From IMG/VR virus record IMGVR_UViG_2579778842_000004: a stretch of 16,811 nt of DNA, one strand, 5' to 3'. This document shows, piece after piece, positions 2,875 through 16,811 of this stretch. Positions within the stretch are counted from its first letter, which is position 1, and each line of letters begins with the position of its first letter. The notes under the pieces were generated by a model, which worked only from the letters and a program-made list of their open reading frames with translations, did not search any database and had not been told where the DNA came from. The translations under genes and the position numbers were made by a program. Source of the stretch: a virus (taxonomy: Duplodnaviria > Heunggongvirae > Uroviricota > Caudoviricetes).

Positions 2875-3162
2875 TTACTGTCTCTGGCAATCTTTATCGC
2901 GATAACGCCTGAAGTACCCTCTCGCTTCCTCATCCATACCAAGAGCCGAATGAGTCCGCTTAACTGCCTGTCTTAAATCTCCGAATCTGTCTGTAGTTGC
3001 TGGTGGGCGTGCCGCCTTACGGATACATTCAGAGCGTCTGTTTGCTGCATGTTCACGTTCTTTATCGCCATCTGCCAGCATCATGACTTCTGCCCATCGT
3101 GCGGCAGCTCTCCGGTATAGCCCTTTTGACTCCAGCTCTTCAGCTTTCCTGTCCCTTATCAT
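2875..3162 (-). CDS. Small basic regulator, PerC/ANR-family-like (tentative)
   Basis: 95 aa, MIRDRKAEELESKGLYRRAAARWAEVMM... matches my recollection of the N-terminal pattern of PerC-type small activators; GAGAGG 6 nt upstream of ATG. Family assignment is from memory, not a search. Confidence 0.55.
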   Translation of the reverse strand: MIRDRKAEELESKGLYRRAAARWAEVMMLADGDKEREHAANRRSECIRKAARPPATTDRFGDLRQAVKRTHSALGMDEEARGYFRRYRDKDCQRQ

Positions 3163-3198
3163 TTCTGCCTCTCAGATTATATAGATAAGCAAAAAGGT

Positions 3199-3319
3199 GT
3201 TGGTTCAGTTGGTTCAGTTGGTTCAATTTGTAAAGATCGTTGTTTTTATTGTGTTTTTTCTGAAATATTGAACCAACATCAACTCATTTTGAACCAACAC
3301 AGCCCAGCTCTGAACCAAC
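3199..3319. repeat. Iteron cluster A: 3 tandem GTTGGTTCA (3199-3225) plus 3 inverted TGAACCAAC at 3269, 3290, 3311 (21-bp phasing)
   Basis: Read directly. The whole block is an imperfect reverse complement of cluster B (9351-9461), including the shared spacer atttgtaaaga. Confidence 0.65.
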
Positions 3320-3373
3320 AACACAGCGATAGCTTTGTGATTGGCCCGTTATTTTCTGGCTGATATTTGAGCG

Positions 3374-3404
3374 TATAACAGTGTTATACAGTGGTATACT
3401 GTAT
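3374..3404. promoter_or_regulatory. Two adjacent palindromes upstream of the RHH gene (candidate operators)
   Basis: TATAACA-g-TGTTATA (3374-3388) and ATACAGT-ggtat-ACTGTAT (3386-3404), overlapping a TATACT -10-like hexamer about 12 nt before the ATG. Confidence 0.4.
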
Positions 3405-3421
3405 GGATATTACTCACTGAT

Positions 3422-3877
3422 ATGGTCTTTGCAATGAGCAAATCTAATCTGGTCGCGTTCCGCATCCCATCTGAATTGCAGGATGAGTTTAATCGGTCTG
3501 TTCTCGCTTCTGGAGGGGATAAAACCTCCTGGCTTGTTGATGCGATTCGCATGAAGCTGGGACAGCCGGAAAAGTCTATTGATTCACGAATGCTTGGGCT
3601 GGTGGAGCGCATGGAAAAAGCTGCTGCGTCGCTTATTGCCGGAAAGCCGAACATCCCACCAAAGCCATATAACGAAACGGCAGTTATAAAGATCATTGCC
3701 GATACCATCCGACAGGGATTTGATAATGGGCGTGTGATAGCTGAACGGATCAATGAAGCAGGCTATCAAACAAAAGCTGGTAAAGCGTGGGATAAAGATA
3801 TTTACAGCGCGTGGAAGCGTCAGGGAAGCAATGCTGAAAAGTTAAAAGCGGTGATTGATTGTAAGGTCAGCGTATAA
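3422..3877 (+). CDS. Ribbon-helix-helix (Arc/MetJ/CopG-like) DNA-binding protein with C-terminal extension
   Basis: N-terminus SNLVAFRIPSELQDEFNRSVLASGGDKTSWLVDAIRMKL fits the beta-strand/helix/helix RHH pattern. No clear SD; alternative start at ATG 3434. Confidence 0.6.
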   Translation: MVFAMSKSNLVAFRIPSELQDEFNRSVLASGGDKTSWLVDAIRMKLGQPEKSIDSRMLGLVERMEKAAASLIAGKPNIPPKPYNETAVIKIIADTIRQGFDNGRVIAERINEAGYQTKAGKAWDKDIYSAWKRQGSNAEKLKAVIDCKVSV

Positions 3878-3956
3878 ACATGAGTGCCCATTGGAAAGCT
3901 GCTTGGGCCAATACCTTTATACACCAGCAGGTGGTGACGATAGGTGAGGATCAGGA

Positions 3957-4178
3957 ATGAAAGGCAGAACGCCACACATTGAACATCAAGCCAACCACTT
4001 CTCGGATGTTCGCAATGAGATGATTGCCATTCGCGGTGATATGCACGGCTTGGAGCGTCGAATTATTGATAAGATTGATGAAAATAGAGATAAGGCCAGT
4101 GAAAATCAAAAGTGGATCATCGGCCTGTTGATTTTATCAATGCTTATCCCGCTACTTATCGCATTGGTCACAAAATGA
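3957..4178 (+). CDS. Small tail-anchored membrane protein (coiled-coil N-terminus, single C-terminal TM)
   Basis: 73 aa; C-terminal WIIGLLILSMLIPLLIALVTK is one hydrophobic helix. Topology resembles XhlA-like or holin-like small proteins, but no family confirmed. Confidence 0.5.
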   Translation: MKGRTPHIEHQANHFSDVRNEMIAIRGDMHGLERRIIDKIDENRDKASENQKWIIGLLILSMLIPLLIALVTK

Positions 4179-4699
4179 ATATCCAATGTGTATGCTGTCG
4201 ATGCTACGCGCACGTACTTGTCGCAAAATATCAGACAAAAGCCAGATTCAGAACGTCGTGATAACCACCAGCACAACAGAGAGGTCATGTAACGCGATTT
4301 ATCACACCAGATACATGTGATTGGTGTACCCGCATAAAACATCGTCATAGCGCGTCCTGTGCGCATATACGCCGATAATCAACACATCACCACCACTCTG
4401 TCTCATGTAGAGAACACTTTTATGGTATCCCCCGCCATCGTGCGCGTACTAGTCGGACGCAGTTGCAAAACTTTTTGCAACTGATACCCCTCGCGCGCGT
4501 ACTTGTCTCGAAATTGGTGTTTTGCTGTGGCAGTGATATCAGAAAAATCTTCCTGTTTCACATAAAGCGGATATGCGCGTACTGTAACGACCCCATCAAC
4601 GGGGGCGGATTTGAAATCCCGACCCAAGCTATGTACCAAATGCCATGTCTTGGATATATGATGATTGCCATTCTAAACAACGCTAAAGGGAGGGTTGGT

Positions 4700-5314
4700 G
4701 TGAGCAGAAAAGATACTAAAGAATTGCTAACTATCTGCATGGTGTACTTTTCAATTTATTTTTGTGCATACATGATAGTCCCAGATGAGTTTGAACATGG
4801 CAGTATTATTTATTCCATAACATTCTATTTTTTAGAGCTAACACCAATTTTGGCTATCCTTTTGGCAATACATATTTATTTTTCCTTAAAAAAAGAATCG
4901 ACTAATTGGGAGAAGGTATGGAGAGACAGAGGATTTCTAACATCACCTAAAGATGATGCATATGAGAGTGATTTTTCAGACTTTATAACAAACTACTACT
5001 CCAGCGAACGATTCAAAAATAGACTGTCTGATGTTTGGGAAACAGCAATGTATTCTATAGGGATTATATTATTGATACTTACTGGTATTGCTCAATATGT
5101 TTTTAACATTGACTTATCATTAAATCCTGAAAATTTAATATCGCCATTGATTTTTGGTGAGATATTGATCTTCTCATTCGGAATTTTCTTGAGTGTTGTT
5201 CTCTGCTCATTATGCAAGCTACTGACTAACAGGTATCCGGGTGAAGCAAGGAGAGCAAGAAAGGCAAATCCATATTATCTTTTATTTCCTAATGGAGACA
5301 GCAGAGATATCTAA
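4700..5314 (+). CDS. AT-rich integral membrane protein, about 4 TM helices, unknown function
   Basis: GTG at 4700 preceded by AAAGGGAGGG (5-nt spacer). Composition drops sharply in GC at about 4690. Four hydrophobic segments (LLTICMVYFSIYFCAYMIV, IIYSITFYFLELTPILAILLAIHIYF, AMYSIGIILLILTGIAQYVF, LISPLIFGEILIFSFGIFLSVVLCSLC). The track's longer start (4463) would include repeat-rich DNA. Confidence 0.6.
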   Translation: MSRKDTKELLTICMVYFSIYFCAYMIVPDEFEHGSIIYSITFYFLELTPILAILLAIHIYFSLKKESTNWEKVWRDRGFLTSPKDDAYESDFSDFITNYYSSERFKNRLSDVWETAMYSIGIILLILTGIAQYVFNIDLSLNPENLISPLIFGEILIFSFGIFLSVVLCSLCKLLTNRYPGEARRARKANPYYLLFPNGDSRDI

Positions 5315-5332
5315 GCCATCCATGGCCATCTG

Positions 5333-7348
5333 TTATTGAGCTTCCTTTTGCGATGCTTGTGCTGCTGTGGTCAGTGATTGTGTGACCGTACTGATCGCTC
5401 TGTCATATGCTGTGCTACCTTTTGGCGTATTTGCCAGACGTAACAAGGCATTTCGTATAACAGGGCTTTCGTATGCCTTCGCTGCTCCGCCTACGGCACC
5501 AGCAGCAGGAACAACAAACGCAGCCGTTTTTAGCATCCCCGCTAATACTGCTGCGTTTATGATGCCACCACCAACTAACAATCCATAAAGCTGCTGACCA
5601 TTTAAGTTTTGAACGTTCGCTTTTGCCGCGTGTCTTGTATCGTTGAGGTATTTAATAACGCCGTCCAGTTCCTTTCCATGTACGCCTTTAAAGAAAGTTG
5701 CTGATTGCTTCCTGTTCCGGTGTAACGCATTAATAAACTTCTCAACACTGATATTTCCAGACGGATCAGTCGCCTTATCTACAGCATTCTGAACTATGGC
5801 TGCTCGTGCGTTTTGCCTACCATTGTCATCCAGAAGCCTGTAAAGCTGAGAACGTTCTGATGGGCTTTGGCTAAAAACGAGTTTTGTTACATCCTCAGGC
5901 GTGGCCTTGCCGCTGGCTATTGCCTTTTGAACGCGCGTTCTTCCCATCATGTCATTGAATTTAGACCATGAGCGATCAACCCTTGCCATATTAATGGCTT
6001 CGTCTGCTCCAAGATTTTTGGCTACGGCTTTTTTCATATCCGCCGTATATGCCTTGTAGATAATATCGCTGGCTTTCTGGAGCGTATCTTTATCAACAGT
6101 GTCAGATGACGCCATAAATCGCTTTCGAAGATCGGTTCTGTTTTCCCTCGCCAGACGCAGGTCATTTGGTCCGCTGGTGATATCGTCTTTAAATTGCTGC
6201 AAGACTTTTACCGCGGCTCTATCCTGAGATTTGCCCGGGCGGCTTAACACGGCAATCTGATTGTCGATAGCTTTTACCGTGTTTGAGAGATCGACAGGGG
6301 TATCCCCCATAGCGTCAATTATGCGGTTATATCGCTTTCCTGCTGCCTCAATGAATTTTTGTTGCCCTTTAGTCGCAGATTCATAAAGCTGTTTATCAGA
6401 AATGCCACCCAGACCATCGCTAAATGTTCTGACTAAATTTTCTCGTGCTTGTTGTTGATTCAGCCGATTCTTACCGGTTCCAAAAAAAGGAACTCTTTCG
6501 CCTAATGTCTGAGCCTGACTCTGCATAAAGGTTTTATCTTTCAGCATGTCACTGGTCATTAACGGTAGGTTTCTTTCCGATGCAAAATCAACAGCGGCTT
6601 TCGCTTCCGGTGCCATATCACCGCGAACGGCCCTCGAAACGGCACTCACTGTATTCTCCAGACCCTTACCAATGCCGCCAATGCCAGCAGAGATTACCGT
6701 TTGTAACGGATCAATATCTTCTCCACCAGCAAGGCTGGTGGCTCCCTGTAGTGCTAAATCTGTAGCTGCTGATTTCCCTATGGCCCCCAGCACCGTTCCG
6801 GCCCTGCCCGCTGGTGTAAACGCCAGCGCATTAGCCAGAAACGATGCCACGTCTTGCGGCGATAAACCCGGCTTGTTCAGAGCATAATCACCGGATGGTA
6901 GGGAAACGATAGTGTTACCCTTCTCATCCTGCCTTAATTTCGCTCCCATGCTCTGAAGAATCTTTTCCTGAGATGCGTCAGAGCCGAAAAGTTGAGACCA
7001 TCGAGCTTTTAGAGCATCCATGCTGAGTGAGGTTAACTCTGGGGCAAGGTCGACATTTTGCAGTCTCTCCATCTCTGGAGTCATTCGGCTTTCGCCTGTT
7101 ATAGCATCGCGCATCGCAGCCCCAAGGCTGGCTCCCTGTTCTGCTGAACGCTCAAGCCCCTCTCTTTGCTGAGTAGCTAACTTTGCATACCCTGACGCAA
7201 GAGAGTTGTCTGCTGGCGATTGCTGAACACCTTGTTGTGTTGGTGCTGACTGACCAGCAAAATACTCATCAATGGCGGTGCCAATATCTTCGGTGCTCGT
7301 ACCATCAGGGAAGGTAAATGTCTTACCGTTTGCAGTTACTTTCATCAT
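5333..7348 (-). CDS. Large (671 aa) Ala/Gln/Gly-rich, largely helical-looking protein with C-terminal hydrophobic segment; function unknown
   Basis: Start overlaps the upstream stop (ATGA at 7348-7345). C-terminal [40 protein letters not shown] is membrane-like. No enzymatic motif recognised. Confidence 0.8.
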
Positions 7349-8736
7349 TCCACCGTAAATTGAATGCCTGATTTTGACGTGTAGCTACCTCCTGCTGATT
7401 GCTGAGTAGCTGGCTGTTGCCTTGATGATTTCTTCCCGCCATTACCGACATTAACGTTATATTGCTGGTTGTAATTGTCGGTATATTGCTGAATGTCGCG
7501 CATTGATTGTTGTAGTGCTTCAGGGCTTGAGAAATCAGGCTTTGGCATACCTTGAAAATACCTATTGGCCTCTGCTTCGGTGTTGATGCCAGATGCCCCC
7601 ATATCTCGGGCTGCCGCAATCCCCTGATTTTGCATTTTGCCCAGGATTCGCTGTGCAGCGTTGTATAGCCTCCTCTCCTCAGCACCAGATGCCCGGCTAC
7701 GAATATCTGCACCAAGAGCAAAAGAACCTGAAGAACCAGTAATACCTGTCATGAAGCCAATATCGTCAATTGATGCGCCAGAAATTGCCTCAAGATCTTT
7801 CTTCATTTCGTAATTCTGCGCATTAGCTGCCGACGTGGCCGGAGCAGCAATAGAGCCAGCTGGAACGCGAACTATGTTCCCCTCATTGTCTATACCTTCG
7901 TAGAACGCGTTAGCACCAGCACCATGAAGTTTCCCGCCTACGGTTACAGTTCTTCCGTCTGCTAGTTGAACTGTGCGCTCATTATTCCCAACCGCCCCTT
8001 TCATTGATGTTCTCTGCATCGCTAAATCCTGACCGCGCATCGTGATGTTCTGTCCTCGTGCTGTTAGCGCCTCGCCAGCCTGATTGCTGCGGATTGTCTC
8101 TGCCAACTTGTCACGCTCAATATCCCGACCTTCCATTTGATCTTTGATATCGAAGTACTTCTCATGGCCGAGAGAAAACAGTGCCAGATTACCTGCGAAG
8201 TGCTGGAAGCCCTGCGGGTCATTAACCTGCATTTCAGCAATAGTTTCTGGAGGGATACCTAAACGACGCATCTCCTTTTCGTTATCCATCATGAACCTGC
8301 CAAATGCGCCCGGACCAAGCGACGAAGCTACCTGTGCTTTAAGCGCCAGATTGCCAAAATCATCCCGCTGGGCGTCATCGACATACCCCATGCCTTTACG
8401 GACTTCCTCAAACTCTTCTGGGAATGCTGTAATAAGATTACGCATCTTCTCCCTGTCGCCGGACGCATAAGCATCTGCATAACCTTTCTGGAATGCCGCT
8501 TTACGCTCCTGCTGTTGCTGCTGCTTATAAATATCAGCAACTCCAGCCAGACCACGAAGACCTGTCAGAGCAACGTTATTTGCACCTGATCGAGCCAGTT
8601 CATTGTTTTCGCGGATCAGACCAAGCGTTGCGTTAATGTCGCTTGCCTTTGGCGCATTCTCATTTTGCGTACCGATGCCAGCCAGAAAACCACCAGAATT
8701 AATACCCTGTTGCCACGTAGCCATTGATTTACCCAC
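7345..8736 (-). CDS. Large (about 460 aa) low-complexity Gly/Ala/Gln/Asn-rich protein; function unknown
   Basis: Long ORF, translationally coupled to the 671-aa gene. Track start is GTG 8736; ATG at 8724 ([12 protein letters not shown]...) is an alternative. Confidence 0.78.
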
Positions 8737-8902
8737 GTCCAGTTAAAGTGTAAGTCAGCGCCTTATCCATTAATCCCCGAGCAATTTCGTGGATCGTTGG
8801 CGCAACTCCTACCTCTGATTTTTTACGCTGCTCCTCCTGAATTTTCTTTATCGCTTCCATTTGTTTCTCACTTATCAATACTGGCTTTACTGAAATAGCC
8901 AT
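8729..8902 (-). CDS. Possible small Lys/Glu-rich ORF (57 aa) heading the large-protein operon
   Basis: ATG at 8902 with AAGGGGG 4 nt upstream (cagttctAAGGGGGcgttATG); stop at 8729-8731, 4 nt before ATG 8724. Not in the ORF track, presumably because it is short. Confidence 0.3.
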
Positions 8903-8997
8903 AACGCCCCCTTAGAACTGTATAAAACAACAGTTATTATAATTTCATAAAACGCAACATTCATCATTGTGATTGCAAAATATGAAACAAATAGCAC

Positions 8998-9030
8998 AAA
9001 AAAATGCCACCGCTCATTAGCTGGTGGCAT
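8998..9030 (-). terminator. Rho-independent terminator closing the primase operon
   Basis: On the minus strand: stem AUGCCACC / GGUGGCAU (9004-9011 / 9023-9030) followed by U7 (complement of A-run 8998-9004). Confidence 0.5.
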
Positions 9031-9350
9031 CGTTCTGTATGTCAGGTTTTGACAGGTTTTTTATGGACTCTAAAAACTATATTTATGGTGTCGCATTACT
9101 CTTCACGGCAGGCGCTTTCCAGTTCTGCCCTTGCTTCTGGCTCCATTGGTAATTTGATTCGAAATCAGCTATGCGGATGGTTTGCTGAACAGGCATAACA
9201 ACTTCTCAGAGGCTGTTTTTTTGAACTACGAAAATTTCGTAGTGCTCACTTTCAAAAACGTCACGCCCTTGTACACAGGATTTTACGAAAGTCTCGTAAA
9301 GCACTCTCTGATGCCAGCCAGATGTTGTGCTCATCAATTCAGTCACGTTG

Positions 9351-9461
9351 TGTTGGTTCAAAATGCCGTGTTGTTGGTTCAGTGTTGGTTCAATAAAAAG
9401 AATAAAATCCTTATAAAACAATACTCTTTACAAATTGAACCAACTGAACCAACTGAACCAA
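9351..9461. repeat. Iteron cluster B: 3 GTTGGTTCA (9351, 9372, 9383) plus 3 tandem TGAACCAAC (9435-9461)
   Basis: Read directly; mirror image of cluster A, immediately downstream of the primase stop (9488). Confidence 0.65.
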
Positions 9462-9487
9462 CACCTTTTCTACGCACATGAAGAAGC

Positions 9488-12250
9488 TCATTCTTCAGAT
9501 GAGTTATAATCTCCTGGCTGGTAATTGAGTACATAAACGTTTATTTGTCGTCCCTGAATACGTGGTGATTTTCTTTGGTATCCACGACCGCTGTTTGGTG
9601 GGGTTAGCATCCCGGCTTTTTTCAACACTTCAGCAAACTGTTTTGCGTTGAAACCACATGCGATCTCCTTTTCAAATGTGGCCGGGAATGTGTAGAAAAT
9701 CATTGGGCTTTCGTCATGTTCTCCACGCTGACGGTATCCGGCTAAATCTTTGATGGGCAAATCTGCCGGGCTGTATGGAAATGGTGCAAAACGGCTAAGC
9801 CCATAGGCATTAAGAAATGCCTCCGTTTGTTCAATAATCTGCTGATGCTCTTTGTTACCTGTGCCGAACTCGCGCAACCATGCGTTATAGCTGTGCTGTA
9901 TCGCATCACGGCATGTCTGAGCATCCCAGCCTGTTACAACCTCGCCTAACAACAATGCGGCCTCCAGAATGGCAAATCGCGCGGCTACACGGTGAACCTG
10001 CTCACCATAATCGGATGGGATCAGGCTTCTCCATCTGCTTTCGCAATCACGAACAGTTTTAATAGCCTGTTGCTGGTGGTCTGCCAGCCATTTAATCCAC
10101 TCACGCCCGGCTGCGCCATGGTGATGCTGGTAAGCGTCTTTCAGTGCGTCTGCGTGCTGTTTTCCGTTCTGGTAATCGTGAAAGCGTACTGCTTTACTCA
10201 ACGGAATATTCAGCAGTCGCACCAGTTGCCCGGCTTTGGTTTTTCGCCCGGAAGTAGCGATAAATGTTTCTAAATCCATTTCTCCGGTGCTGATTGCCAC
10301 TGTGCGCCAGCGTTTTAGATCCCGGTTTCCACCATCTTTAGCGCCTTGCAGTTTCCCTACACCGTTAAATAACGCATAGGCAGACTGTGAAACACTGACA
10401 GGATCAGCGCCCTGACCAACTTCATCAAGCGGCATTAGTCCGTCATTGTGGGCGGCAGCTTCATTTGCCAGCCCCAGCGCGGTTCCGTACCACGTCAGCC
10501 GCAGTAAATCAGGGTTGCCGTATAAGCTGCTCGCCACGTTTGCCGTGGTGGTCTTACCTGCGCTCGACTGCTCATAGAAATGAATGCCGAACCCGTCAGC
10601 GCCCACCAGCCCAATCAATGGCGCTGCCAGTGCTGCGCCGATCCCGGTCATCATTGAATAGTTACCAAAGGCCAGACGCGCCACGTTATCACGCCAGCTT
10701 TTCGCGCTCCCTGAGACGGTATATCCGGCTGCGGCTGAGCTTCTCCCGCTGAACAGCACAGGATTTTCAGGTGTTCCGATGATTTCCCCATCAGGCATGA
10801 TGTACGCTCCGCATTGCCAGCCAGTGGCATGAGCAACACGCCACAATTCACGAGAGCCACTGCGTTGTAGCCAGTCTGCCAGTATTGCTCTGAGGCTGCT
10901 TTTGGTCGTGACATTTACCCCACCAGCTTTCAGGGTGCGCCAGCCTTCACGCTCGCCAATATCAGCCAGCGGGATAGCCGCTGTTGTCGGTATGCCTGCA
11001 CCGAATGCCAGCCATGAGATAATAAGATACTGATCTTTGTCGTCGCGTCCCGTGCCGATAACCTCCAACGGGGAACATAACCAGCTTTCAGCGTTGACGA
11101 TCTCCCCGCTTTCCTTGTCCACCTTCGGCGTTACCCAGAAAACGCCATCTTTGCGGCTCTCAATGTGGGGTTTTAGTGGATCTTTCTCTGGATGGTCAGT
11201 TTTACCGCCCTCAATGGCTTGCAATCGCGGTTTCACGGCTTCCCCTTGAATCTGGTACATCGAATCGTTAAACGCAGCCGTAGCGACTTCCAGCCCGTTT
11301 TGCTGGCGGTAGTCGTCCCAGTCGGCTTTGTAGTCTGTCGGCGGCAGTGCCACCCAGCCAGCCACGGATAAGGCGGCTTTCTCTGCGGCATCTTTGCCCG
11401 TGTTCGCCTGTTCGTCCTGCTGGTGGTCGTTATCTGCGGCAATGATAATCTGCGTGGCTGGATATATCCGGCGCATCACTTCGGCAACGGGTAGCAGGTT
11501 GCCCGCATCAATGGCGCACACTGTCAGCGCGTCAGGGCGCATCAGGTGGACTGATAAAGCGGTTGCCAGCCCCTCGGCAATTAAAACGCTCTGCGGCGAT
11601 TCTGGCGCGTTTACGGCGTGATATGCCCCGCGCTTTGCTGAACCTGTCAGGAGTCGCTTCTCTCCCTGCGGTGTAATGGTTTGCGCTGCTGCCACTGCGC
11701 CGGATTCGTCCACCAGCTCCAGCAATAACGAACCATCCGGCATAACCGGATAGTTAAACCCGGTCAGCCCTTTTGATTGCAGGTAATCAGATTCGCCCTG
11801 TGTGGCACTCTGGCGCATTCCGGCATACAGATGGGCAAACGTAGCCCTTCGCTGCTCTGCGTCCTCTGCTGCCTGTTTCTGGCGCTCCTGCTCACGCTGC
11901 TGGCGGTCAGCTTCCAGTTGCTCCCTTCTATGGCTCGCTGCCACCGGGTCGGATTGCGCTGCCCGGTAATCAATACCCAGAACATCAGCGACAAGAAGCG
12001 CCGCCTCTGTTGTGTCGCAGTTATTTACGCGTTTAATTAAATCCAGCCCATCACCAGCGCCGCACTGATTACAGATGAAGCTACCGCGCCCGTTGTCATC
12101 GAACCGGAATCGATCTTTGCCCCCACATGCAGGGCAGGGAGCATGACGGCGCGGAGAGTCAGGGACATTTATGTTCAGGCAGCCCAGCACATGAGGCCAG
12201 TTGTTTTCAGACGCACTGATAACCTGACGGATAAGATCAATGTTTCGCAT
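9488..12250 (-). CDS. Primase-helicase, P4 alpha-like (N-terminal zinc ribbon, TOPRIM, C-terminal P-loop NTPase)
   Basis: 920 aa. Zinc ribbon CPACGG...FICNQCG; TOPRIM-like VLIAEGLATALS ... IIIAADNDHQ; Walker-A-like FYEQSSAGKTTTANV. GGGGG 5 nt upstream of ATG. Confidence 0.9.
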   Translation of the reverse strand: MRNIDLIRQVISASENNWPHVLGCLNINVPDSPRRHAPCPACGGKDRFRFDDNGRGSFICNQCGAGDGLDLIKRVNNCDTTEAALLVADVLGIDYRAAQSDPVAASHRREQLEADRQQREQERQKQAAEDAEQRRATFAHLYAGMRQSATQGESDYLQSKGLTGFNYPVMPDGSLLLELVDESGAVAAAQTITPQGEKRLLTGSAKRGAYHAVNAPESPQSVLIAEGLATALSVHLMRPDALTVCAIDAGNLLPVAEVMRRIYPATQIIIAADNDHQQDEQANTGKDAAEKAALSVAGWVALPPTDYKADWDDYRQQNGLEVATAAFNDSMYQIQGEAVKPRLQAIEGGKTDHPEKDPLKPHIESRKDGVFWVTPKVDKESGEIVNAESWLCSPLEVIGTGRDDKDQYLIISWLAFGAGIPTTAAIPLADIGEREGWRTLKAGGVNVTTKSSLRAILADWLQRSGSRELWRVAHATGWQCGAYIMPDGEIIGTPENPVLFSGRSSAAAGYTVSGSAKSWRDNVARLAFGNYSMMTGIGAALAAPLIGLVGADGFGIHFYEQSSAGKTTTANVASSLYGNPDLLRLTWYGTALGLANEAAAHNDGLMPLDEVGQGADPVSVSQSAYALFNGVGKLQGAKDGGNRDLKRWRTVAISTGEMDLETFIATSGRKTKAGQLVRLLNIPLSKAVRFHDYQNGKQHADALKDAYQHHHGAAGREWIKWLADHQQQAIKTVRDCESRWRSLIPSDYGEQVHRVAARFAILEAALLLGEVVTGWDAQTCRDAIQHSYNAWLREFGTGNKEHQQIIEQTEAFLNAYGLSRFAPFPYSPADLPIKDLAGYRQRGEHDESPMIFYTFPATFEKEIACGFNAKQFAEVLKKAGMLTPPNSGRGYQRKSPRIQGRQINVYVLNYQPGDYNSSEE

Positions 12251-13339: not shown

Positions 13340-13530
13340 TTTTCACCCCCAAGAATTACCAGCTCTGCACGGGCATCGTTAACCAAAGATGAGCACGCTT
13401 TAATCGCATCCACGACATCAGTAGCGTCCATTTCTTCAGCCGAAAGACTGACAGCAACCAGGACAGCCGCTGCTTGCTCGATTAATTGAAGTGCGGACGT
13501 AAGGCGAGGGGTATTAATTGAGTTATTCAT
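13336..13530 (-). CDS. Small acidic hypothetical protein (64 aa)
   Basis: ATGA-type overlap with neighbours. Confidence 0.5.
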   Translation of the reverse strand: MNNSINTPRLTSALQLIEQAAAVLVAVSLSAEEMDATDVVDAIKACSSLVNDARAELVILGGEK

Positions 13531-13741
13531 TGGTTTCCCCCGTTTTTACTGGCATTTCGCCACCTTCCAGCAGGAAATGAACGTCACGAACGGCGAGATC
13601 CAATATCGCGAGTAACGCCTTCAGTCTTTCGTCTCGTGAGGGAGAGTTGCTCACCAGAATGTCGTTAATCACTTCTGTCAGTGTGATGATCTGGCTTGTG
13701 CGTTCGAGGGGATCCATATGCACATCGTAGGTTTTAATCAT
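13523..13741 (-). CDS. Small acidic hypothetical protein (72 aa)
   Basis: ATG 13741 with GGAGGTG 6 nt upstream; overlaps the stop of the 13734-13928 ORF (CATGATTAA). In frame with the long 13523-14551 open frame. Confidence 0.5.
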   Translation of the reverse strand: MIKTYDVHMDPLERTSQIITLTEVINDILVSNSPSRDERLKALLAILDLAVRDVHFLLEGGEMPVKTGETNE

Positions 13742-14551
13742 GTGCCACCTCCATGCGGATACGACCAGCAAAAAAGCAGACGTGATCGCGCACCAGAGAA
13801 CGGCGAGCATCGCGTTCAGACTCGGCAGCAATATGATGAATTTTGGCGGTAATTGTCGGGCAATCGCGGCGAACTGCGGCGATAATCCAGATAAATTGCG
13901 GTTTTTGGGTAGGGGTAGTAGCCAGCATGTGGCAGCCTCCTTGATTGATGGTTTATAGCCACCGCCGGAGGTCCTAAGCTCGCTGGCGGTGGACTGTACA
14001 GGGTTAGGACTACTGGCAATCAAGGAAACCAGCCTGACCGAAGTCAGCCCCATACAGCCCACCATTGATAAGGTGTGCGTGTGCGCCGATACAAAAAAAG
14101 ACGCTGGCGCGTCATGTATCGCCTCGATTGCCTGCGGGGTCCTAATCCCGGCACCCGTTTTATGAGGTGCCTTATAACCATAAACCGTGTTGCCGCATAA
14201 CGGCAAGCTCTTTTTTATGGACTCCGAAAACTCACTATTGGAAGCACCAGATGCACAATACATCGCGCTCATTTCGTTAACGTCACGCACGTGGACGAAT
14301 GTTTTTGTGGAGTCACTACACGAGCAGAACAGGTGATCTACGACCAGAAATTCTCTGGCGCAGCCGCTGACCTTCTCAACGCTAACACCATCGACCGTAA
14401 TTTCTGACATAGTTAAGGCATCCGCTCCTACCACCAGCAAATGATAAACTTTGCTTGTATCTGCTGTATTAATGCCTGACTTTGCTGTCATATTGCTGGA
14501 TTTTGGCGACATACCAGCCAGTGAAAATGTCTTCTTCTGGACGGTTAGCAT
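13523..14551 (-). CDS. Long uninterrupted open frame (342 codons); N-terminal about 150 codons look coding, middle section coincides with RNA structures; possibly composite or frameshifted
   Basis: ATG 14551 has GGAGG 7 nt upstream and overlaps the upstream stop (ATGCTAA). No in-frame stop until 13523; a T7 run sits at 14099-14093. Alternative annotation is the two small ORFs listed separately. Confidence 0.3.
13734..13928 (-). CDS. Small basic hypothetical protein (64 aa)
   Basis: ATG 13928 preceded by textbook SD AAGGAGG (13942-13936, 7-nt spacer). The SD lies in the 3' arm of a predicted RNA stem. Confidence 0.45.
   Translation of the reverse strand: MLATTPTQKPQFIWIIAAVRRDCPTITAKIHHIAAESERDARRSLVRDHVCFFAGRIRMEVAHD
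13936..14113 (-). promoter_or_regulatory. Structured RNA leader/attenuator-like region (minus-strand transcript)
   Basis: 5' to 3' on the minus strand: hairpin GACGC-GCCA-GCGUC then U7 (14113-14093); CUGAC-UUCG-GUCAG tetraloop hairpin (14047-14034); 9-bp long-range stem CCUUGAUUG (14025-14017) pairing CAAUCAAGG (13947-13939), which contains the SD of the 13928 ORF and encloses an 8-bp hairpin CCACCGCC/GGCGGUGG (13992-13959). Confidence 0.4.
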
Positions 14552-15565: not shown

Positions 15566-15997
15566 TTAGGCGGCGTTAAACGCGTTCGGGTAGAGTTTCA
15601 GAATGTCGGCAATTTCCTGCTGAGAAAGTCCGTTGTGATCATTTATGTTCGCAAGATGGTTAACATGAGTGATCACTTTCAGAACATCACCACGGCAGGA
15701 GAAACGGTAGCGAAGGTGTGTTCCGATACCATCAGGATTCTTTTCGTCGATACGCTCCAGAGTGATTCCAAGCTGGCGTTCTAACTCTGTTGCATAGTTA
15801 CGACCAGAAGACAGACGGCAGTAGCGAAGAATGTCATTTTCTGTCCATCCCTCTATACCAGTACGCAGCATATAGACTCTGGCACGATGCTTTTTCGGTG
15901 TGCGCTTTGGTTCTTGAAGGGATTTTGTAAGGGGCGTAACATCAGATACGCGAATATCTGAATTAGCCGCCTGTAATGGGCGGTTTTTCTTTTCCAT
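15566..15997 (-). CDS. Hypothetical protein (143 aa), translationally coupled to the AlpA-like gene
   Basis: ATG overlaps the AlpA-like stop (TGATG); AAGGTGG 5 nt upstream. Confidence 0.6.
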   Translation of the reverse strand: MEKKNRPLQAANSDIRVSDVTPLTKSLQEPKRTPKKHRARVYMLRTGIEGWTENDILRYCRLSSGRNYATELERQLGITLERIDEKNPDGIGTHLRYRFSCRGDVLKVITHVNHLANINDHNGLSQQEIADILKLYPNAFNAA

Positions 15998-16200
15998 CAG
16001 GCCACCTTCCCGCGGCGTTCTGCCAGCCAGTTGTGAATCTCAACCGCATCAAACGCAGTTATTTTTTCTCCCAGCTTTACCGGACGTGGTAGTGAACCGT
16101 TTCTTACTTTACGGTCGATGGTGGATACACTAACGCCCAGCAATTCAGCCAGGCGGAAGCGTCTGATATAGCCTTTTGTAGGAATAGTGTCGGTGTTCAT
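15997..16200 (-). CDS. alpA: AlpA-family / excisionase-type helix-turn-helix regulator
   Basis: 67 aa; RFRLAELLGVSVSTIDRKVRNGSLPRPVKLGEKITAFDAVEIHNWL fits the AlpA/Xis HTH pattern; first gene of the long minus-strand operon. Confidence 0.75.
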   Translation of the reverse strand: MNTDTIPTKGYIRRFRLAELLGVSVSTIDRKVRNGSLPRPVKLGEKITAFDAVEIHNWLAERRGKVA

Positions 16201-16314: not shown

Positions 16315-16811
16315 CTACCCCTTACCGTTGGCGGCAGCACGTAAGTGTCTCAAAATCACATCTTCATTTGTGATTGCTAACGGTGGAATTTCGTCTTTAT
16401 GAGCCACTATGCAATCCCGCCACTTCTCAGGGCTTATTTCTTTCTTTTTGCCACGGCATTCATCAGGATACTTTGACAAAAGATATATTGCTGATTTGAA
16501 AAGTTTTTCCCTGTTTTCAGCATGTCTCTCGGCATTATGGTTGCTATTTTTTATTTCAGGTATTAGTTCCTGTTCTACCGCCATTTCGTATCGTTTTTTG
16601 CTCTTAGCTGCGTCAAAACTTCCATTAACCTTTGCGTCGTGAAGATATTCTAAATCAGCCTTTGTTATATAAATGTTTTTATCTGACAGGCTACTCAGGT
16701 GAATCTGGGAACTTTGCATTTTGAATTTATATAGATCACAATCAAATGTTGCTTCAAGTCGCACATATGGCTCTCCACATTCTTGTGAATGATAATGTCG
16801 TGTTGTACTAC
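16315..16811 (-). CDS. Hypothetical AT-rich protein ('gene X'), 3' part; 5' end runs off the window end
   Basis: Frame is open from the window end to the stop at 16315. The last 54 codons (LSKYPDECRGKKKEISPEKWRDCIVAHKDEIPPLAITNEDVILRHLRAAANGKG) are unique; the rest duplicates 1-332 in the same frame. Confidence 0.6.
   Translation of the reverse strand, partial: STTRHYHSQECGEPYVRLEATFDCDLYKFKMQSSQIHLSSLSDKNIYITKADLEYLHDAKVNGSFDAAKSKKRYEMAVEQELIPEIKNSNHNAERHAENREKLFKSAIYLLSKYPDECRGKKKEISPEKWRDCIVAHKDEIPPLAITNEDVILRHLRAAANGKG
16480..16811. repeat. Terminal direct repeat, right copy (matches 1-332)
   Basis: See left copy; offset between copies is 16479 bp. Confidence 0.95.

Follow-up and report, generated by a model that had tools for sequence, protein, structure and literature searches.

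The virus record IMGVR_UViG_2579778842_000004, a stretch of 16,811 nucleotides (hereafter the window, meaning the whole of it), contains two clusters of short repeats, or iterons, that are mirror images of each other. One cluster follows the gene for a primase-helicase, Pri-Rep, and the other stands beside the gene for a PerC-family regulator. We identify the window as the excised circular form of an Escherichia coli island, located between dinD and yicC, that resembles phage-inducible chromosomal islands (PICIs) and satellites of the P4 type. We propose that a single satellite replication origin comprises both clusters as its Rep-binding modules, which are separated here by 6.1 kb of accessory genes; judging from the sequence comparisons described below, we give this reading a probability of about three in four.

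Two mirror-image iteron modules

A first, sequence-only reading of this DNA had picked out twelve copies of a 9-mer in two clusters that are reverse complements of each other, and counting bears this out. The 9-mer GTTGGTTCA/TGAACCAAC occurs in 12 exact copies in the window against 0.13 expected, and at least 12 copies were reached in 0 of 200 shuffles. When one mismatch is permitted, only 6 further GTTGGTTCA sites appear, scattered and none of them close to either cluster.

Cluster A, designated module 2 (3199-3319, + strand), consists of three contiguous + strand copies at 3199, 3208 and 3217 (3199-3225), a 43-nt spacer (3226-3268) and three inverted, − strand copies at 3269, 3290 and 3311 (3269-3319) with 21-nt spacing. 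Cluster B, designated module 1 (9352-9462, − strand), is its reverse complement and has the identical architecture: read in the direction of the primase gene, three contiguous iterons (9462-9436, with − strand copies at 9436, 9445 and 9454) are followed by a spacer, again of 43 nt (9435-9393), and by three inverted iterons (9392-9352, with + strand copies at 9352, 9373 and 9384, spaced by 21 and 11 nt). The partial 21-bp phasing reported at first holds for the − strand copies of cluster A and for one interval of cluster B; the end of the feature, first placed at 9461, lies at 9462. A repeat finder recovers the symmetry as two pairs of inverted-repeat arms, one of 55 nt and 95% complementarity (3192-3246 / 9415-9469) and one of 38 nt and 84% complementarity (3264-3301 / 9349-9386). 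Both spacers are exceptionally rich in AT. That of module 1 (84% AT) is the most AT-rich 43-mer of the whole element, while that of module 2 (79% AT) falls within the top 0.3% of the element's 43-mers. Two further conserved stretches accompany the modules: just inside module 1 lies the motif CTGGCTGG (9314-9321, − strand), which in contiguous origins stands between modules 1 and 2, and outside module 2 lies a conserved flank, CACCTTTTTGCTTATCTATATAAT on the − strand (3168-3198), after which come the ribosome-binding site and ATG of the PerC gene.

Only 25 nt separate the end of cluster B from the primase stop codon (9488-9490), in agreement with the initial observation that one cluster adjoins the 3' end of the primase-helicase gene. 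At the far end of the segment, 36 nt lie between the PerC start codon (3162) and the outermost iteron of cluster A. The initial description of this cluster as lying near a PerC-like promoter follows from position: promoter and terminator scans of both cluster regions returned nothing, and no sigma-70 consensus promoter was detected. A perfect TATAAT does occur 13 nt upstream of the PerC ATG; it is unconvincing, being too near the ribosome-binding site. An Rfam scan found no RNA family in or close to either cluster.

A composite primase-helicase whose C-terminus tracks the iteron

Pri-Rep (920 aa; 9488-12250, − strand) was analyzed with Pfam and PHROGs, by comparison with the P4 alpha protein and against PDB entries 8TCH and 5DGK. 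Over residues 7-331, which comprise a zinc ribbon and a Toprim domain, Pri-Rep shares 34% identity with the primase part of P4 alpha (E = 2e-42); beyond residue 331 the alignment shows no similarity to alpha. Residues 367-645 of the helicase correspond to DUF927 (E = 1.8e-49), and the helicase core, residues 413-815, matches the Rep protein of Staphylococcus aureus pathogenicity islands (SaPIs; PDB 8TCH, 'Pathogenicity island protein', E = 2.5e-10) as well as the helicase of the staphylococcal cassette chromosome SCCmec (PDB 5DGK). On these matches, Pri-Rep is a composite in which a P4-alpha-type primase is fused to a SaPI-Rep-type helicase. A self-loading helicase of the Rep family, optionally fused to a primase, is what characterizes PICIs, and Pri-Rep is such a protein. 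A P4 satellite, by comparison, has an alpha-type helicase of the D5 group (superfamily 3) with the alpha origin-binding domain, whereas the domain found here is DUF927 and not DUF5906/D5.

SaPI Reps are self-loading initiator helicases that recognise their iterons by a C-terminal winged helix (PMC9371898). Does the C-terminus of Pri-Rep also follow the iteron? The relatives compared were 78 Enterobacterales loci, recovered by a primase search of species genomes, of which 58 were classifiable. The iteron variants of the family are GTTGGTTCA, GTTGTCTCA, GTCGGTTCA, GTAACCCGT, GTGGGTTAT, AGGTCGGGT and GGGATAAGT, and in every case modules 1 and 2 of one locus carry the identical variant; the split module pair of locus L043 has GGTCGGTTT in both. 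When 67 loci were examined for covariation, the C-terminal motif RG[YF]QRKSPR was present in 39/39 loci with GTTGGTTCA iterons and in 0/28 loci with other iterons, counts that ignore shared ancestry. In the window, QRKSPR occupies residues 892-897 (codons at 9560-9577, − strand). The contrast between closely related primases that differ in both motif and iteron appears telling: primases 86-87% identical overall to that of the window but with QGRVRE in place of the motif have GTTGTCTCA iterons, and the sole protein with QRKTPR has GTCGGTTCA iterons. Both the covariation and the variant common to the two clusters support the original suggestion that the 9-mers are the iterons of the primase-helicase.

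Module order and distance among relatives

In most of the recovered relatives an iteron array begins 23-30 nt after the primase stop codon. The two modules are directly adjacent in 29 of the 58 classifiable loci, forming an array of 10-12 iterons over about 250-290 nt with the pattern +++-----+---. These adjacent origins start with module 1, that is, three contiguous iterons, a 43-nt AT-rich spacer and three inverted iterons at 11-/21-nt spacing; then come the CTGGCTGG motif and a mirror-image module 2, which ends in three contiguous inverted iterons and the flank CACTTTTGCTTATATATA. A flank of the form (C)ACTTTTGCTTATATATA comes after module 2 in every iteron-variant lineage. Cluster A of the window shares its outer flank and internal features with the second module of the relatives, and is therefore orthologous to module 2, as cluster B is to module 1.

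Split modules, 0.4-9 kb apart, were found in 11 of the 58 relatives, all from other genera. Within E. coli, the modules are 1.8 kb (L084), 6.1 kb (the window) or 8.4-8.5 kb (L004 and the satellite EcCIMP1) apart. A further E. coli island, also inserted at dinD-yicC, has adjacent modules and GTTGTCTCA iterons. Among E. coli genomes, 413 have module 1 together with the primase 3' end, and a second site matching the module was found in 19 of the 19 sampled. Locus L036 (Yersinia pekkanenii) has three iteron arrays, spaced by about 4.6 kb and 1.2 kb and located upstream of and after the primase match, an arrangement that hints at an origin region copied in tandem or rearranged.

The second module is well conserved. 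Its orthologues from six genera align without gaps, with 92.7% identity in the iteron columns and 59.6% in the others (permutation p < 1e-4), and the 43/21/21 spacing is fixed across all six. Every separated copy examined (10/10) has a 43-nt spacer with 72-79% AT, and 7 of 11 adjacent copies have a GC-rich spacer of 34 nt. The AT-rich spacer of a distant module 2 may reflect the need for a melting region of its own, or mere descent from the AT-rich type.

Comparison with PICI/SaPI and P4 origins

The published PICI/SaPI origin lies directly 3' of rep and has 6-12 iterons around an AT-rich middle, with at least 2 opposed iterons per side (PMC9371898). The same layout has been reported for Gram-negative PICIs, some of which have PerC (PMC6092414). 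In the window, module 1 stands immediately downstream of the rep gene, and each of the two modules has three opposed iterons on either side of its AT-rich region. In its arrangement cluster B fits the published origin exactly, and so does cluster A when taken alone. The likeness to the islands SaPI1, SaPIbov1 and EcCICFT073 comprises the 3' origin, the opposed iterons, the AT-rich region, the Rep-like helicase, int, alpA and PerC. As in PICIs, int and alpA are present at a specific attachment site (dinD-yicC); induction by a helper is known only for the relative EcCIMP1. The differences are that the window has two complete mirror-image modules rather than one, separated by 6.1 kb that contain accessory genes, that its iterons are 9-mers rather than 5-6-mers, and that its primase domain is of the P4-alpha type. 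By most tests, the feature would thus belong to the PICI/SaPI origin class, and the second module and the split arrangement would be an addition that we have not found described. Searching the literature for the iteron string gave unrelated primer matches only, and no description of a split origin was found in the literature on DUF927, iterons and satellites.

EcCIMP1, found in E. coli MP1, is a close relative of the island, and the P22-like phage Kapi1 serves as the helper that induces and mobilises it (Pick et al. 2025, PMC11773190); the paper describing EcCIMP1 makes no mention of iterons and gives no description of an origin (PMC11773190). Its primase is 88% identical to that of the window, with an identical C-terminus, and 12 exact copies of GTTGGTTCA are arranged in two modules 8.4 kb apart. 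EcCIMP1 also shares the P22-like ejection-protein cargo and the PerC gene, and differs in having another integrase and attachment site (thrW/proA, not dinD-yicC) and a larger cargo.

The sequence-only reading had likened the two clusters to the separate origin (ori) and cis replication region (crr) of phage P4. In the P4 record, crr occupies 4291-4590, next to the 3' end of the alpha gene (4636-6969), and ori (9086-9809) is flanked by divergent genes at a distance of 4.5 kb; both are annotated with type I iterons in both orientations. The anatomy of the window is strikingly similar: two separate regions share an iteron in both orientations, one of them adjoining the primase-helicase gene at its 3' end, the other situated kilobases away between divergent genes. 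The N-terminal primase domain is homologous to that of alpha, and C4/CI-type RNA, an ash open reading frame (ORF) and AlpA/Vis-like genes are also present. On this much the analogy stands. It does not extend to the helicase and origin-binding part, which is unrelated by sequence and of the SaPI Rep type (DUF927), nor to a fixed separation of the regions, since the distance between modules is variable and falls away altogether in half of the relatives (29/58). Moreover, the P4 type I iteron is TGTTCACC, unlike GTTGGTTCA; P4 ori and crr are unlike each other internally, whereas the modules here are mirror copies of one complete origin unit; and no sid, psu or delta genes were found in the window with Pfam, PHROGs or the RefSeq annotation.

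Could the arrangement nevertheless be a strict P4-type ori/crr pair, with both regions needed in cis, initiation at one of them, module 2 acting as ori, module 1 as crr and the primase-helicase bridging the two? Besides the matching positions, the alpha-like primase, the C4 and isrK RNAs, the ash ORF and AlpA, this explanation would account for the constant presence of module 2 in the sampled E. coli genomes that have module 1 and the primase. In addition, sister elements with a DUF5906 primase (L002 and L088) carry a different iteron, GGTGGTACAGG, whose two inverted sets lie about 1.1 kb apart on either side of two small genes. In L002, these sets lie at 23504-23626 and 24631-24740 and represent a second, independent split iteron pair. 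Against a strict P4 type are the initiator helicase, which is SaPI-Rep-like and not alpha-like, the report that a clone of pri-rep and the adjacent ori segment of a related PICI replicates (PMC6092414), the 18 relatives that have only module 1 in the available sequence, and the full origin architecture of each module, which contrasts with the differing structures of P4 ori and crr. We regard it as a possibility that deserves to be kept in view, yet one with the odds clearly against it.

What does the second module do?

Several observations weigh against two Rep-binding modules that both function in one origin. In the 18 relatives with module 1 alone, the available sequence covers about 10 kb downstream in 12 and less than 6 kb in 6; module 2 may be dispensable in them or may be located further away. 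Conversely, module 2 alone occurs in about 160 of 574 E. coli genomes, where neither module 1 nor the cognate primase accompanies it. Examples are L002 and L088, in which a GTTGGTTCA copy of module 2 stands beside PerC in islands with a different, P4-alpha-like DUF5906 primase; L003, a deletion derivative that has lost the primase C-terminus and module 1 and kept module 2; L087, an island remnant with module 2; and L065, which has a complete origin of its own plus a foreign module 2. The iterons of these orphan copies are almost all intact, and conservation by itself therefore does not prove current function. At the protein level, the C-terminal 160 residues of Pri-Rep are modelled by AlphaFold2 with a confidence (pLDDT) of 44 from a 30-sequence alignment, too low to establish a fold, and a profile search of PDB sequences with this C-terminal region gave no match. 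The shared ancestry behind the covariation counts has to be set on the same side. What the orphan copies make plain is that module 2 clearly travels with the cargo/PerC side of the island during exchange of replication modules.

In iteron plasmids such as P1 and F, an extra initiator-binding iteron array outside the minimal origin (incA and incC, respectively) is the classical layout. Module 2 could similarly be a negative copy-number control array that titrates Rep, or handcuffs module 1, until Rep is abundant. The GC-rich spacer of the seven adjacent module 2 copies, which resembles binding arrays rather than melting sites, would be in keeping with such a role, as would the relatives known from small circular records of 12.2 kb (E. 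coli, L084) and 19 kb (Klebsiella). However, incA and incC arrays have no melting region and act negatively, whereas module 2 has the full architecture of an origin. Titration would require neither the 43-nt, 79% AT spacer of the window nor the AT-rich spacers of all ten separated copies, and we consider copy-number control by module 2 unlikely.

Alternatively, module 2 might be a relic with no present function, left by rearrangements that moved accessory genes into and around an ancestral two-part origin. Orphan copies do survive in decayed islands and next to replication modules unrelated to them, and lineages differ in where the PerC/cargo block lies with respect to module 2. A relic would not be expected to show iteron columns far better conserved than their flanks in six genera and a fixed 43/21/21 spacing, the identical iteron variant in both modules in every specificity lineage, and a spacer that is AT-rich whenever the modules are separated. 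This explanation has, in our estimate, only a small chance of being correct.

A role mainly as a transcriptional operator, with Rep or the ribbon-helix-helix (RHH) protein binding module 2 and controlling the divergent PerC and RHH genes, carries an equally small chance. Most of the 260-nt interval between the PerC and RHH genes is taken up by module 2, whose outermost iteron lies so close to the PerC ATG (36 nt) that any PerC promoter must overlap the module, and the E. coli orphan copies always stand beside PerC. On the other hand, PerC does not come after module 2 in other genera and no consensus promoter was detected. The iterons were rejected as an RHH operator in particular: the RHH gene has a separate repeat element of its own, present even where the iterons are absent. 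A regulatory role would in any case be compatible with a role in the origin, and Rep binding may possibly affect PerC expression.

The proposal, also made from the sequence at first, that the inverted repeats mark the ends of an invertible or mobile cargo cassette can be dismissed: although repeats of 55 and 38 nt do bound a 6-kb accessory segment whose cargo differs among relatives, an inverted-junction query (PerC flank, repeat and reverse complement of the cluster B inner flank) run against 5,426 E. coli genomes was found at 80% coverage or more in 0 of the 561 genomes that hold these sequences (best coverage 62%, corresponding to the normal flank), no invertase, transposase or other recombinase is encoded in 3320-9351, and in 29 relatives the modules are directly adjacent with nothing between them.

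A proposed mechanism and its implications

How might two modules of one origin work together? We propose that the C-terminal region of Pri-Rep around QRKSPR recognises GTTGGTTCA, as the covariation suggests, and would bind the iterons of both modules. Module 1 would serve as a canonical PICI origin: by analogy with SaPI Rep, the protein would occupy the opposed iteron triplets, open the 43-nt AT-rich spacer between them and load its hexamers. Module 2 would be a conserved second module that directly follows module 1 in most relatives and has come to be separated from it by 0.4-9 kb of accessory genes in the window and a subset of relatives. Because separated copies always keep their own 43-nt AT-rich spacer, module 2 probably still cooperates with Rep; it would provide a second loading site or, like crr, act as a partner that touches module 1 by looping out the cargo.

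A stronger form of this mechanism is an obligatorily two-part origin throughout this widespread Enterobacterales satellite family, in which an MCM-like self-loading Rep would have to occupy both modules and these would communicate by protein-mediated looping across 30 bp to 9 kb, a mechanism like that of P4 ori-crr that would have arisen on a SaPI-Rep chassis. We put it forward tentatively, at roughly one chance in four. If it were true, the gap between the modules would be the preferred accessory-gene slot of the family, placed between two Rep-loading sites and replicated first.

PICIs and P4-like satellites are very common in Enterobacterales and carry defence, virulence-regulator and phage-interference genes. 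Previous work described their origins as a single iteron/AT-rich unit directly after rep. In the family described here, the origin would instead have two mirror-image modules, between which accessory genes can lie, and a short C-terminal motif of Pri-Rep would predict the iteron of an element. From this, one can derive testable predictions of how a self-loading helicase recognises its origin, and a simple way of predicting replication cross-talk or incompatibility between co-resident satellites. Many islands would have an orphan iteron cluster beside PerC because it was left behind when replication modules were swapped. EcCIMP1 and Kapi1, with the same split origin in the satellite, offer an experimentally tractable pair.

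The element and its accessory genes

The first 300 nt of the window exactly repeat positions 16480-16779, and the sequence is therefore a 16,479-bp circle with an assembly overlap of 332 nt. It is 100% identical to the dinD-yicC island of porcine enterotoxigenic E. coli (ETEC) strains, circularly permuted; a junction at about 2345-2365, TTATTCGATATTCTGAATCTG, joins sequences from the attR and attL sides of the ETEC1749 island, as an attP junction does. Island genes include those for a tyrosine integrase (int, 897-2240), an AlpA-like helix-turn-helix protein (15997-16200) and an AntA/B antirepressor, together with the 'ash' ORF. Rfam identifies a C4 antisense RNA and an isrK RNA, at 13982-14069 (−) and 14094-14170 (−), inside the ORF annotated as an ash family protein (13523-14551). 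This region resembles the RNA immunity region of P4-like elements, and part of the long 'ash' ORF may be spurious. An int-alpA RNA was found downstream of int (822-888, −), and a scan for tRNA genes found none.

Relatives have been deposited as small circular 'plasmids' of 10-19 kb from E. coli and Klebsiella (L084, NZ_CP148430.1; L085, CP031370.2; L086, NZ_CP142848.1), which suggests that such elements persist or accumulate as episomes. L086 bears a protease/major-capsid fusion gene. Locus L072 encodes a chimeric primase with an N-terminus like that of the window's protein.

The accessory segment between the modules (3422-8902) varies in content and in length among relatives. In the window, it comprises the Arc-like RHH gene (3422-3877, +), a small ORF (3957-4178, +), a weakly SieA-like ORF (4463-5314, +), genes for P22 gp16-like (5333-7348, −) and gp20-like (7345-8736, −) ejection proteins, and an ORF of 57 aa (8729-8902, −). 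Relatives L002, L004 and L090 add gp7-like and DUF2824 proteins to the P22 gp16/gp20 homologues. The P22-like ejection proteins of these satellites may be virion components or may serve in superinfection interference. On the outer side of module 2, and transcribed away from it, lies the PerC-family regulator gene (2875-3162, −), identified by PF06069 (E = 2.6e-33); the ETEC1749 annotation likewise names it PerC.

Between module 2 and the RHH gene are three 10-nt tandem repeats, TATAACAGTG, TTATACAGTG and GTATACTGTA (3373-3402, +). In other genera, TGTCTTAC repeats precede the RHH homologue irrespective of the presence of iterons, and they overlap a TAAAAT −10-like box. The repeats at 3373-3402 are likely to be an autoregulated RHH operator, separate from the origin. 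At the other end of the segment, the stretch of about 450 nt that separates module 1 from its neighbouring gene (8903-9351) contains no convincing ORF and is conserved even in L002, despite its different primase. A GC-rich hairpin in this region (about 9005-9030), followed by a run of T on the − strand, may be the terminator of the primase operon.

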